64,000 nucleotides of DNA, from NCBI GenBank assembly GCA_964564245.1, contig CAZMAK010000001.1, positions 48,989 to 112,988 on the forward strand, read 5' to 3'. Under the pieces are notes generated by a model. It made no database searches, was not told the origin of the DNA, and worked only from the letters and a program-made list of their open reading frames with translations. Position 1 is the first letter of the stretch. Every line of letters starts with the position of its first letter. The position numbers were made by a program, and so were the translations under genes. This document shows, piece by piece, positions 38,880 through 46,435 of this stretch. This DNA comes from an uncultured Ectothiorhodospiraceae bacterium (lineage in GTDB: Bacteria > Pseudomonadota > Gammaproteobacteria > UBA9214).

Positions 38880-40280
38880 TCATCCACGTACCGACCGGTC
38901 GATGCGGATATCCAGTTTTTTCACACGATGCCAGAGACTCCGCTCGCTGATTCCCAGCAGGCGCGCCGCCTGTACCTGCACACCGCCGGTTTCCCTGAGG
39001 GCGGCAATGATCAGGTTACGCTCTGCCGTTGCCAGCCAGCCGTCCAGTCCATCGTCTCCCAGCACGGCCAGGTCTCCGCCGGCACGAGGGACACCCTCTT
39101 CACCGCCGCGCACCACCTTGTCCGGCAGATCGTGCAGTTCGATGATCATACCGCGGCAGGAGAGCACGGAGCGCTCCACCGCGTTGCGCAGCTCGCGCAC
39201 GTTGCCGGGCCAGTCGTATTCGCACAGTGCCGCCATGGCCTCCGCGCTGAAACGTTCCACCGGCTTGTCCATCTCGGCGCGCAGGATCTGCAGGAAACTT
39301 TCGGTCAGCAGGGGAATATCGTCGGCGCGGTCGCGCAACGGTGGTACATCGATCTTGTATACGTCCAGACGGTAGAGCAGGTCCTCGCGAAAGGTGCCCT
39401 GCCGGACCATCTCGTCGAGATCGCGGTGGGTCGCCGCGATGACGCGCAGGTCCACGCGTCGCAGGACGTCACTGCCCACCGGCGAGAATTCCCGCTCCTG
39501 CAGCACGCGCAGCAGCTTTGCCTGCAGCGCGAGATCGAGATCACCCACCTCGTCAAGAAACAGTGTGCCGCTATTGGCCTGTTCCAGGCGCCCCAGCCGG
39601 TTCTGCACCGCGCCGGTGAAGGCGCCGCGGACATAACCGAACAGCTCGCTCTCCATCAGGTCACGCGGAATGGCCGAACAGTTGATGGCCACCCAGGGCC
39701 GGTCCGCGCGCGGACCATTCTCGTGAATCACCCGTGCGACCGCTTCCTTGCCGGTACCACTCTCTCCGGTAATCAGCACGTTGGTCTTGTACGGTACCAC
39801 GCGGTTGATCTGGTCCCACAGGGCAAGCATGGCATGGCTGCTGCCCACCAGCCTGCGGCGCGGGGTCCCGCCCGACACGGCCGCCTGCAGCTGGCGGTTT
39901 TCCTGGATCAGATCATGCAGGCGCACGGCGCCCTGTACCGCAAACTGCAGTTCCTCGGGCTCGAACGGCTTGGTCAGGTAATTGCTGGCCCCCGCCTGGA
40001 TACACTCGATGGCCGAGCGGATCGAGCCGAATGCCGTCACCACGATGACCGGCACATCGGGGCATTCGCGCTGGCACTGGGCGATGAACTCCTCGCCGCT
40101 CATGCCGGGCATCTTCAGGTCGGACAGGACAACCGCAAGATCCGGGTCCCGCAGCAGCGGCAGCGCATCACTGGCCCGTTCGGCCGTGAGCACCCGGTAG
40201 CCCGCCTCTTCCAGCGCCATCTGCATGACCAGGAGCATGTTGCGCTCGTCATCGACAACCAGCACCGTACGTTGCATCAC
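38880..40280 (-). CDS. sigma-54-dependent response regulator (NtrC family)
   Basis: Receiver domain. AAA+ sigma-54 activator domain with GESGTGKE and GAFTGA. C-terminal Fis-type HTH. Confidence 0.9.
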   Translation of the reverse strand: MMQRTVLVVDDERNMLLVMQMALEEAGYRVLTAERASDALPLLRDPDLAVVLSDLKMPGMSGEEFIAQCQRECPDVPVIVVTAFGSIRSAIECIQAGASNYLTKPFEPEELQFAVQGAVRLHDLIQENRQLQAAVSGGTPRRRLVGSSHAMLALWDQINRVVPYKTNVLITGESGTGKEAVARVIHENGPRADRPWVAINCSAIPRDLMESELFGYVRGAFTGAVQNRLGRLEQANSGTLFLDEVGDLDLALQAKLLRVLQEREFSPVGSDVLRRVDLRVIAATHRDLDEMVRQGTFREDLLYRLDVYKIDVPPLRDRADDIPLLTESFLQILRAEMDKPVERFSAEAMAALCEYDWPGNVRELRNAVERSVLSCRGMIIELHDLPDKVVRGGEEGVPRAGGDLAVLGDDGLDGWLATAERNLIIAALRETGGVQVQAARLLGISERSLWHRVKKLDIRIDRSVRG

Positions 40281-45073: not shown

Positions 45074-46435
45074 ATGTCTCATCGTCATGGCCCCCCGTTA
45101 CGCCATCACATCCGGCGCAGCCAGCGCAAATTCCTGTCACGCTTCGCCTGGAAGACACGGCTGGTGCTGTGGGCCGGTGCCCTGCTGGTGGGCCTGATCT
45201 GTGCCGTGTTCGCCCTGCTGGCCGACCAGGCCGACCACGTGTTTCGCTATCTGACCACATTCGGCCCCTGGGTGCCGCTGGTCGTGACCCCGCTGACACT
45301 GGCCGGACTGGCGTGGGCGACCCGCAACCTCTTTCCCGGCTCGCAGGGCAGCGGCATCCCGCAGGCCATTGCCGCGCTCGAATCGAGCCGCAAGGGTGCC
45401 GTGCTGTCGCTGCGTATCGCCGCCGGAAAGATCCTGCTGACACTGCTCGGCCTGGTGGCGGGCGCCTCGATCGGACGCGAGGGGCCATCGGTGCACATCG
45501 GCGCCTCGATCCTGTACTCGCTGGGCCGCATCGCGCGTTTCCCGCCACGCTACATGGAACGCGGCCTCATCCTCGCCGGCGGTGCGGCGGGTATCGCGGC
45601 GGCGTTCAACACCCCGCTGGCCGGTATCGTGTTTGCCATCGAGGAGATGAGCAAGAGCTTCGAGCAGCGCGCCAGCGGCATCGTGACCATCGGCGTGGTC
45701 ATCGCCGGTGTCACCGCGCTGGCCACGCTCGGGCCGTACCACTACTTCGGCACTTCCGATGCCTTCATGCCGGATACCGCGAGCTGGCTGGCGATCCCGG
45801 TCTGCGGCGTGATCGGCGGCCTGCTCGGCGGGCTGTTTTCCAGTGCGCTGGTCGAAGGCTCGCGCCGGCTCACCCCGGTCGTGCGTCATCACCCCTACCT
45901 GGTCGCGTTTGCCTGTGGGCTGGTGGTCGCCGTCATCGCATACTTTTCCGACTACAGCTCCTCGGGCACCGGCTACGCCACCGCGAAGTCCATCATCACC
46001 GGCACGGCCGACTGGGATCCGCTCTATCCCGTGCTGAAATTCGGATCCACACTGGCCTCCTATCTGAGCGGTATTCCGGGCGGCATCTTCGCCCCCTCGC
46101 TGGCCACCGGCGCGGGTGTCGGCGCCAATCTCGGTCACTGGCTCCCGATCGCCCCGGTCTCCGTGATGATCATCCTCGGCATGGTGGGCTATTTCTCGGG
46201 TGTCGTGCAGTCACCGATCACGGCCTTCATCATCGTCACGGAGATGATCAACGACCAGGACATGCTGCTGGCCCTGATCGCGACCTCCTTCATTGCCTAC
46301 GGGGCGTCACGCCTGGTGTGTCCGCAGCCCATCTATCATGCCCTGTCGCAGGCGTTCCTCAGGTCAGAAGCGGAGACACAGGGCGCCGGCAAGCCGGACC
46401 TGCCCGCACCGGGATCCGCACGTCAGGAGGGCTGA
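45074..46435 (+). CDS. ClC-family chloride channel/transporter (no CBS domains)
   Basis: GSGIP and GREGP selectivity-filter motifs. 10-12 TM. Confidence 0.85.
   Translation: MSHRHGPPLRHHIRRSQRKFLSRFAWKTRLVLWAGALLVGLICAVFALLADQADHVFRYLTTFGPWVPLVVTPLTLAGLAWATRNLFPGSQGSGIPQAIAALESSRKGAVLSLRIAAGKILLTLLGLVAGASIGREGPSVHIGASILYSLGRIARFPPRYMERGLILAGGAAGIAAAFNTPLAGIVFAIEEMSKSFEQRASGIVTIGVVIAGVTALATLGPYHYFGTSDAFMPDTASWLAIPVCGVIGGLLGGLFSSALVEGSRRLTPVVRHHPYLVAFACGLVVAVIAYFSDYSSSGTGYATAKSIITGTADWDPLYPVLKFGSTLASYLSGIPGGIFAPSLATGAGVGANLGHWLPIAPVSVMIILGMVGYFSGVVQSPITAFIIVTEMINDQDMLLALIATSFIAYGASRLVCPQPIYHALSQAFLRSEAETQGAGKPDLPAPGSARQEG

Follow-up and report, generated by a model that had tools for sequence, protein, structure and literature searches.

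The locus analyzed here lies in a 64,000-nucleotide stretch of DNA (hereafter the window) from an uncultured Ectothiorhodospiraceae bacterium, contig CAZMAK010000001.1, and centers on a predicted sigma-54 promoter set between a sensor kinase-activator gene pair on the minus strand and three plus-strand genes that encode a Sel1-repeat protein, a SulP transporter, and a ClC-type protein (Table 1). Pfam profiles bore out each of these five gene calls, which had been made in a first-pass annotation of the same DNA. The promoter motif sits in a 132-bp intergenic gap of 37% GC, embedded in a region of ~65% GC, and is oriented toward the Sel1, SulP, and ClC genes, the kinase-activator pair lying divergently on its opposite side. 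We compared this arrangement with 42 orthologous loci (L002-L043), which were retrieved with an alignment of the kinase from a set of genomes limited to one per species. The comparison argues for a classical enhancer-dependent sigma-54 promoter in a conserved, uncharacterized two-component regulon, a reading to which we would give a probability of roughly three in four.

Table 1. Positions of the genes and DNA elements of the locus, numbered along the window
Feature	Position	Strand	Basis
NtrC-type sigma-54 enhancer-binding response regulator (activator), 466 aa	38880-40280	-	Pfam REC + Sigma54_activat + AAA_lid_14 + HTH_8
Sensor histidine kinase, 578 aa	40277-42013	-	Pfam HAMP + HisKA + HATPase_c, weak CHASE4
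Distal upstream activator site (putative), degenerate, CTACAAGACACGGGT	42003-42017		Alignment with orthologous loci
Proximal upstream activator site (putative), CTTCAAATTTTGTAG	42021-42035		1 mismatch to CTAC-N7-GTAG
IHF-like site (candidate), TAACCTGTTGTTT	42080-42092		1 mismatch to reverse complement of WATCAANNNNTTR
Predicted sigma-54 -24/-12 promoter element, TGGCCTGCATTTTGCA	42121-42136	+	GG-N10-GC, conserved in orthologous loci
Sel1-repeat protein, 303 aa from conserved ATG	42182-43093	+	Pfam Sel1 9.7e-23
SulP/SLC26 anion transporter + STAS	43115-44953	+	Pfam Sulfate_transp 4.2e-93, STAS 6.3e-12
Hairpin, ~14-bp stem, no U-run	44961-44993	+	Starts 8 nt past SulP stop codon
ClC-type Cl-/H+ exchanger-like protein, 453 aa	45074-46435	+	Pfam Voltage_CLC 3.1e-87
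TMEM175-family K+ channel homologue	38288-38887	-	Pfam TMEM175 9.2e-32

The two regulatory genes are tightly packed, the activator start overlapping the kinase stop by 4 nt, and the activator gene follows the kinase gene in 42 of the 42 related loci, whose kinases are 54-82% identical to that of the window. These loci belong to Thiogranum, Thiohalomonadaceae, Sedimenticolaceae, Chromatiaceae (Imhoffiella, Thiohalocapsa), Gallionellaceae, Thiobacillaceae, and Parasulfuritortus, that is, to both Gamma- and Betaproteobacteria, a host list biased by the way in which the loci were collected. The activator displays a Sigma54_activat domain (Pfam, 8.6e-69) with Walker A (GESGTGKE, residue 172), GAFTGA (219), and Walker B (DEVG, 243) motifs, preceded by the receiver residues D54 (LSDLKMPG) and K104 (LTKPF). 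Six-frame translation of the window revealed no other GAFTGA protein, consistently with the initial statement that its sole sigma-54 enhancer-binding protein is encoded divergently and right next to the promoter. Scoring against NCBIfam equivalog models left the activator well under the respective cut-offs for AtoC (434 vs. 714 bits), NtrC (TIGR01818; 422.6 vs. 558.6), ZraR (361 vs. 760), and GlrR (351 vs. 763), and the kinase under that for ZraS (114 vs. 479 bits). Indeed, regulator and kinase fall below every named equivalog cut-off, including those of AtoC/AtoS, NtrC, ZraR/ZraS, and GlrR, which assigns the activator to an unnamed subfamily. Similarly, the kinase has more than 1000 homologues, none of them specifically named, among whose named hosts are Thiogranum, Endothiovibrio, and Thioalkalispiraceae.

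The kinase comprises a first transmembrane segment, a periplasmic tandem PAS-like (dCache/CHASE4-like) domain, a second transmembrane segment, and HAMP, HisKA, and HATPase_c domains, its Pfam CHASE4 match remaining below threshold (22 vs. 26.2 bits). AlphaFold2 modeled residues 40-285 with a predicted local distance difference test score (pLDDT) of 85.7 and a predicted template modeling score (pTM) of 0.80, rendering a long helix (H2-42), two PAS-like beta-sheet modules, and a C-terminal helix (H230-245). Foldseek searches with this model recovered the double-PDC domains of LuxQ, DctB, PctA/B/D, TlpQ, and KinD at a probability of 0.97-1.0, with TM-scores of just 0.35-0.49. On this structural prediction, the kinase would sense through a tandem PAS-like periplasmic domain of the dCache type. 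Five periplasmic residues are invariant (W134, R160, H168, R170, and R194), and the model places R160, H168, and R170 on strands of the membrane-distal module. Carboxylate sensors with a dCache fold hold their ligand pocket in that same module, and the modeled placement of the three residues would fit an anionic ligand.

For the promoter itself, the initial claim that TGGCCTGCATTTTGCA fits the -24/-12 consensus with exact spacing proved correct in both coordinates and architecture, GG occupying 42122-42123 and GC 42134-42135, that is, GG-N10-GC. Thirty-eight loci, with both the kinase start and a Sel1 gene, were usable for promoter comparison. In 36 of these 38, the best GG-N10-GC facing Sel1 was found at a near-fixed distance from the kinase start (offset 139-167, counted in an extraction that includes 30 nt of coding sequence). 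An alignment of the 36 loci anchored on this element, scored over 92 positions (-62 to +29), revealed G1, G2, T12, G13, and C14 as invariant, T0 as 97% and T11 as 94% conserved, and just 3 of the 77 positions beyond the element with more than 0.8 bits, all of them within the IHF-like site described below. The consensus of the promoter family reads TGGCCCG-N4-TTGCW. A family-derived pattern, TGG[CT][AC][CT]-N5-TTGC[AT], has its only match in the window (64 kb, both strands) at 42121, and matches the Sel1 promoter in 27 related loci and just six other places in their ~600 kb. In the two exceptions among the usable loci, the element is in its expected place but has lost the -12 C to one substitution, reading GA in L023 (TGGCATGAAATTTGAT, at ~7830 in Imhoffiella purpurea AK35) and GT in L040 (TGGTCCAGGTTTTGTA), and the promoter may be weakened or decaying in both. 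The near-fixed position and the invariant GG and GC across orthologous loci amount to strong phylogenetic footprinting and argue that a genuine sigma-54 promoter has been conserved at the -24/-12 element. With the C of the promoter GC numbered -12, as is customary, transcription is predicted to start near 42147. This leaves the GTG at 42146 at position -1 of the predicted transcript and excludes it as start codon; translation of Sel1 likely begins at the conserved ATG at 42182, in a context (CATACCATG) common to L004, L005, and L039.

The anchored alignment further uncovered two dyad-symmetric CTAC-N7-GTAG sites 92-124 bp upstream of the promoter TGG. The best two matches lie exactly 19 bp apart in 33 of the 36 loci, and 67 sites yield the consensus CTAC-R-M-A-W-Y-N-Y-GTAG. 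Perfect sites are common, as exemplified by CTACGCATTGCGTAG and CTACGCAATGCGTAG in L025; the distal palindrome is perfect in L003, L004, L005, L009, L020, L022-L028, and others, and the exact palindrome has one off-target occurrence only in ~600 kb of related loci. The proximal site of the window is centered at about -119 from the predicted start and the distal site at about -137, where it overlaps the GTG start codon of the kinase gene (42011-42013). The first-pass annotation had pointed to 42014-42120 as the place for such enhancer palindromes; they do exist, but at 42003-42035, the distal one over the kinase start. As the two palindromes span the kinase ribosome-binding site and start codon, activator binding there would probably also repress or autoregulate the kinase-activator operon. 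Between enhancer and promoter, TAACCTGTTGTTT begins 41 bp upstream of TGG and is centered at about -61, in a position conserved across loci. Read by eye in the anchored alignment as a YAAC-N4-TGATT-like element, it is modestly conserved (0.81-0.92 bits at positions -41, -31, and -30) and is a candidate site for integration host factor (IHF), whose published consensus is WATCAANNNNTTR.

Several observations in the window itself weigh against this reading. The left half of the distal site is kept, whereas its right half reads GGGT, and the two sites are spaced by 18 bp instead of 19 bp. No RpoN-box protein was found in the six-frame translation of the 64 kb. Palindromes with one mismatch are not significantly enriched in the window (9 observed vs. 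9.5 expected), and matches with up to two mismatches to the general consensus TGGCACG-N4-TTGCW number 14 against 14.5 expected; the looser TGGC-N7-TTGCW occurs five times against 1.5 expected, the other four matches being all intragenic. A sigma-54 motif scan of the window, as once proposed for this promoter, thus returns chance levels with the mismatched consensus, whereas the family-derived pattern is unique to the site. Because the window-only motif and palindrome statistics are at chance, we dropped them as evidence and relied on the comparative data instead.

That such statistics do not single out the motif would suit an explanation by which it is a chance match in AT-rich intergenic DNA and a sigma-70 promoter drives the operon instead. 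The comparison already contradicts this, with GG and GC invariant across 36 diverged loci amid randomized flanks, and a consensus scan of 41900-46800 yielded no sigma-70-like promoter (its three terminator-like matches were at chance level and all intragenic), so that we consider a chance match scarcely credible. Alternatively, the promoter could be real and fired by another enhancer-binding protein encoded elsewhere, the adjacent pair regulating something else. Binding of the adjacent activator to the palindromes is a prediction, and our view covers 64 kb of the genome, both of which leave room for such a factor. On the other hand, the palindromes, the promoter, and the kinase-activator pair are kept together with fixed spacing in ~40 genomes of two proteobacterial classes, and the palindrome is nearly absent from the remainder of the loci, making a foreign activator very improbable. 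Since the paired palindromes and the IHF-like site are conserved along with the pair in ~40 species, the adjacent divergent genes almost certainly encode the activator system of this promoter.

We therefore propose that the membrane kinase would sense a periplasmic signal via its tandem PAS-like domain and phosphorylate the NtrC-type activator, which would assemble on the two CTAC-N7-GTAG palindromes centered at about -119 and -137. A bend at the IHF-like site near -61 would then bring the activator to sigma-54 RNA polymerase bound at 42121-42136, where ATP hydrolysis would open the promoter and allow transcription from ~42147 through Sel1, SulP, and probably ClC.

The first gene of this predicted transcript is present in 37 of the 42 related loci, invariably upstream of and divergent from the kinase gene. 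Every Sel1 orthologue begins with a basic stretch and a hydrophobic segment of ~20 residues (signal peptide or signal anchor), followed by the conserved motif E(L/V)DWL..LA..GDAGAQLQLGLAYR. This N-terminal export or anchor segment predicts a periplasmic location of the repeats. Homologues of the protein are unnamed and labeled 'TPR repeat protein'. By analogy with ExoR-ExoS and ZraP-ZraS, periplasmic Sel1 may assist the kinase or act on it in a feedback loop.

Sel1 and SulP are separated by 21 bp and, judging from the sequence, are likely co-transcribed, although the corresponding gap reaches 144 bp in relatives. Extension of the transcript to ClC is plausible and stays uncertain because the 120-bp SulP-ClC gap holds a strong hairpin (44961-44993), a further point against a single operon; the gap gave a z-score of just -1.43 (126 nt scored). 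This GC-rich hairpin could act as an attenuator or a stabilizer of a SulP-ClC transcript, or have no role. Thus, of the earlier proposal that the promoter drives Sel1, SulP, and ClC, the orientation stands, but inclusion of ClC across this gap is presumptive. The SulP protein passes the cut-off of TIGR00815, the 'sulfate permease' subfamily (395.7 vs. 380.45), and its nearest solved relatives are prestin and plant SULTR4;1; identification as DauA or BicA was rejected, both equivalog scores lying far under cut-off. ClC carries the motifs GSGIP (residue 92), GREGP (134), EEM (190), and GIFAP (337) and scores below the ClcA equivalog cut-off (193.9 vs. 350 bits). A CLC-F fluoride exporter was discarded on the grounds of the canonical GSGIP and GREGP, and an Rfam scan of the whole window returned no match, hence no fluoride or other riboswitch ahead of ClC.

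The Cys-rich tail of SulP had been called unusual, a description that did not survive a broader search. The three Cys of the tail (LDKKVCSNCSLSTFREC) are kept in all close orthologues as DK-x2-C-x2-C-x6-F-x-EC. When the last 92 SulP residues were searched against 1.84 billion cluster representatives (50% identity), 148 matches were retrieved, 140 of which contain C-x2-C-x(5-10)-C, almost always as C-x2-C-x7-C. The consensus of this tail family is LD-x3-C-x2-C-x3-R-[IV]-F-x-EC; the window motif follows the STAS domain at residues 584-596 (44865-44903), lacks the Arg of this consensus, and is accompanied by an extra NCNC found only in the window and L039, the sole local trait of the tail. The three-Cys extension is widespread in a large SulP subfamily, has apparently escaped study, and may constitute a metal or redox site.

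The genes behind the promoter vary among the related loci. Sel1-SulP is found in the window and in eight loci (L002-L008 and L039), with ClC following in the window, L002, L003, L006, L007, L008, and L039. In 25 loci, Sel1 is instead followed by a gene for a DUF599 protein (~250 aa; PF04654, E 1e-57 to 1e-59), and in L032 and L034 DUF599 stands right behind the promoter region without Sel1; no DUF599 gene exists in the window. L010 combines Sel1 with a distant SulP paralogue (34% identity), and L038 has SulP right after the activator gene (kinase-activator-SulP). In L028 and L031, Sel1-DUF599 converges with a separate SulP-ClC-DUF599 operon whose SulP is 82% identical to that of the window. 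Taken at the level of sequence, the conserved unit is the kinase-activator pair with its sigma-54 promoter, usually Sel1, and one membrane protein, a slot filled by SulP(-ClC) only in the clade of the window and by DUF599 in 27 loci. Accordingly, the suggested dedicated two-component sigma-54 control is upheld by the conserved sites and linkage, but not its assignment to a SulP-ClC module, which is lineage-specific cargo on a core of Sel1 and DUF599.

This picture is not free of discordant loci. Sel1 is followed by neither DUF599 nor SulP in L013 and in L016 (Sel1-YceI), and its absence from L032 and L034 makes it dispensable. The separate SulP-ClC-DUF599 operon of L028 and L031 is devoid of CTAC-N7-GTAG sites; a shared enhancer was rejected for it on these grounds, and the idea of a shared regulon gains no support from this operon. 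A perfect sigma-54 consensus, TGGCACGCCGCTTGCT, does occur ~640 bp upstream of it on the plus strand (L028 685-700, L031 502-517), with no convincing open reading frame in between and with an inverted repeat, TGTTGCATTTTACAACA, ~170 bp upstream; a long leader or a small RNA controlled by another activator would be possible explanations. As for the YceI-like periplasmic proteins, their genes lie on the same strand after Sel1(-DUF599) in two related genomes (L014 5092-5784 and L016 408-1103, minus strand), and in L016 the gene occupies the usual DUF599 position.

Such variation invites the view that the promoter mainly serves to produce Sel1, within a loop for envelope stress or feedback similar to ZraP-ZraSR or ExoR-ExoS/ChvI, and that the transporters are opportunistic passengers that share no function. 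No gene behind the promoter is as constant as Sel1 (37 loci), the second gene changing between DUF599, SulP, SulP-ClC, and YceI, and the divergent layout mirrors that reported for zraP-zraSR by Leonhartsberger et al. (2001). Like ExoR, Sel1 is predicted to be exported or anchored to the periplasm (PMC4550343). However, two loci (L032, L034) have lost Sel1 while keeping promoter region and DUF599, and the passengers are not random, DUF599 or SulP being present in 36 of the 38 loci with a readable gene behind the promoter. We thus judge a Sel1-centered loop unlikely.

The preferred reading, a conserved sigma-54 regulon run by the adjacent pair, raises the question of its output. Because three kinds of anion-related membrane protein (DUF599, SulP, and ClC) share one regulatory slot, anion export or homeostasis is a plausible output. 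In Methylobacterium extorquens evolved on dichloromethane, mutations recurred in clcA, besA (a bestrophin homologue), secY, and the DUF599 gene named edgA, whose product was judged likely involved in chloride export, and edgA and clcA alleles were antagonistic (PMC4271186). In plants, sulfate starvation induces a set of seven genes across four species, one of which is the DUF599 gene At4g31330 (PMC13349389), and purple sulfur bacteria have been proposed to export sulfate through a SulP permease (PMC5944118). Set against this, the anion theme is guilt by association, and four look-ups of DUF599 neighborhoods elsewhere placed the gene in a complex-I-like cluster, next to a resistance-nodulation-division (RND) pump, next to an OmpR-type two-component system, and stand-alone. 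Our more specific proposal, that the kinase, with or without Sel1, is a periplasmic sulfate or chloride sensor switching on via sigma-54 whichever anion exporter the lineage uses (DUF599/EdgA, SulP, or ClC), is accordingly offered tentatively and at clearly less than even odds.

Among candidate anions, sulfate export leads, favored by host lifestyles, and chloride is the alternative, favored by ClC and EdgA. In its strict form, the same control would serve specifically the export of sulfate (or of a sulfite- or thiosulfate-derived oxyanion) in dissimilatory sulfur oxidation, not of chloride, and the signal perceived by the kinase would be periplasmic sulfate or a sulfur compound. Nearly all named hosts belong to sulfur- or iron/sulfur-oxidizing lineages, including Endothiovibrio; SulP exceeds the 'sulfate permease' cut-off and counts SULTR4;1 among its nearest solved relatives; and SulP is tied to the two-component pair in four distinct arrangements. 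The proposed exporter role of SulP in purple sulfur bacteria (PMC5944118) and the place of plant DUF599 in the core sulfate-starvation response (PMC13349389) point the same way. Conversely, the partner ClC is of the canonical Cl-/H+ exchanger type (GSGIP, GREGP, and the Glu-Glu motif), the sole bacterial genetics on DUF599 indicates chloride (PMC4271186), no sulfur-oxidation genes lie in the window, and the host list carries the collection bias mentioned above. Output restricted to sulfate is, on balance, a serious possibility that falls somewhat short of even odds.

The regulatory wiring has close counterparts among known systems. As in NtrB/NtrC control of glnAp2, the activator combines REC, AAA+ (GAFTGA), and a Fis-type helix-turn-helix, and two dyad sites lie ~100-140 bp upstream of a GG-N10-GC core, with a candidate IHF-like site in between. 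It differs in that the TIGR01818 equivalog cut-off is not reached, the putative binding site is CTAC-N7-GTAG, the kinase has a periplasmic dCache-type sensor whereas NtrB is cytoplasmic, and the targets are Sel1 and anion transporters instead of nitrogen assimilation genes. The layout is most similar to that of zraP-zraSR, which is reportedly likewise a kinase-activator operon divergent from a sigma-54-driven gene for a periplasmic protein, with the sites in the shared intergenic region, and in which feedback by the periplasmic protein offers a plausible parallel. Here, however, the periplasmic protein is of the Sel1-repeat and not of the CpxP/ZraP family, transporter genes follow, and no sigma-54 element directed at the kinase gene, such as that of zraSR, was seen on inspection of the minus strand; the sole candidate kinase promoter is an extended -10-like TGcTAAAAT at ~42041-42049 (minus strand), a speculative assignment.

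The parallel with ExoR-ExoS/ChvI, in turn, lies in the genetic link between a sensor kinase and a periplasmic Sel1-repeat protein. ExoR binds and inhibits the sensor domain of ExoS in the RSI switch of Rhizobiales (PMC4550343); a contact between Sel1 and the kinase at our locus is conjectural. ChvI is of the OmpR type and works with sigma-70, exoR is not next to exoS/chvI, and the likeness resides in the type of Sel1 repeat. EdgA and ClcA of M. extorquens resemble the present system in that DUF599 is the usual second gene in other species and ClC one replacement here, edgA and clcA mutations addressing the same chloride-export limitation (PMC4271186). Unlike here, no sigma-54 or two-component link is described in that study, in which EdgA function was itself inferred. 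Literature searches on Sel1 with sigma-54 and on RpoN with chloride channels or SulP retrieved no description of the system. The regulon therefore appears undescribed, with textbook wiring that leaves the sigma-54 mechanism as known.

Other genes of the window lie outside this scheme. Next to the activator, the gene of the TMEM175 homologue abuts or overlaps the activator stop codon at 38880. It was found in none of the 42 related loci, being specific to the window, and is possibly co-transcribed with the kinase-activator pair, a suggestive tie between a cation channel and a regulon of anion transporters. Downstream of ClC (46487-49659) lie genes for a GT4 glycosyltransferase (minus strand), a PAP2 phosphatase (plus), a small open reading frame (minus) for which the label diacylglycerol kinase is provisional only, and a metallophosphoesterase (plus), perhaps LpxH-like. 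These genes resemble a neighborhood for envelope-lipid remodeling and are not part of the operon, because the strands differ. Farther away, ~7900-26000 (minus strand) holds a type IV pilus/MSHA-like cluster with a secretin, a PilM-like protein, a prepilin-type N-methylation protein, T2SSF, and a T2SSE ATPase with MshEN, within which 15477-18983 encodes a 1168-aa protein with CBM96, LDL-receptor class B, and DUF5050 repeats. The window is also unusually dense in signaling genes (4547-6898, 12185-13372, 25928-28135, 28524-30383, 57622-59427, and 59427-62363), namely two hybrid histidine kinases (one with CHASE8 and Hpt), a further kinase, and GGDEF, GAF-GGDEF-EAL, and REC-GGDEF-EAL proteins, none of which carries a sigma-54 activator domain.

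Together, these data define an uncharacterized two-component regulon that is widely conserved among sulfur- and iron-oxidizing Proteobacteria of environmental importance, with promoter, enhancer, and spacing predicted precisely enough for direct experiment. The exchange of DUF599 for SulP-ClC behind one promoter lends independent genomic support to a role of DUF599/EdgA in anion export, and the kinase-activator pair becomes a candidate for the control of the SulP-type sulfate exporter that has long been assumed, though not proven, in sulfur oxidizers. If the anion-sensing proposal is true, this would be the first described sigma-54 regulon of anion homeostasis, and it would assign to DUF599, an orphan family extending from bacteria to plants, a role that can be tested, namely anion efflux on a par with SulP and ClC.

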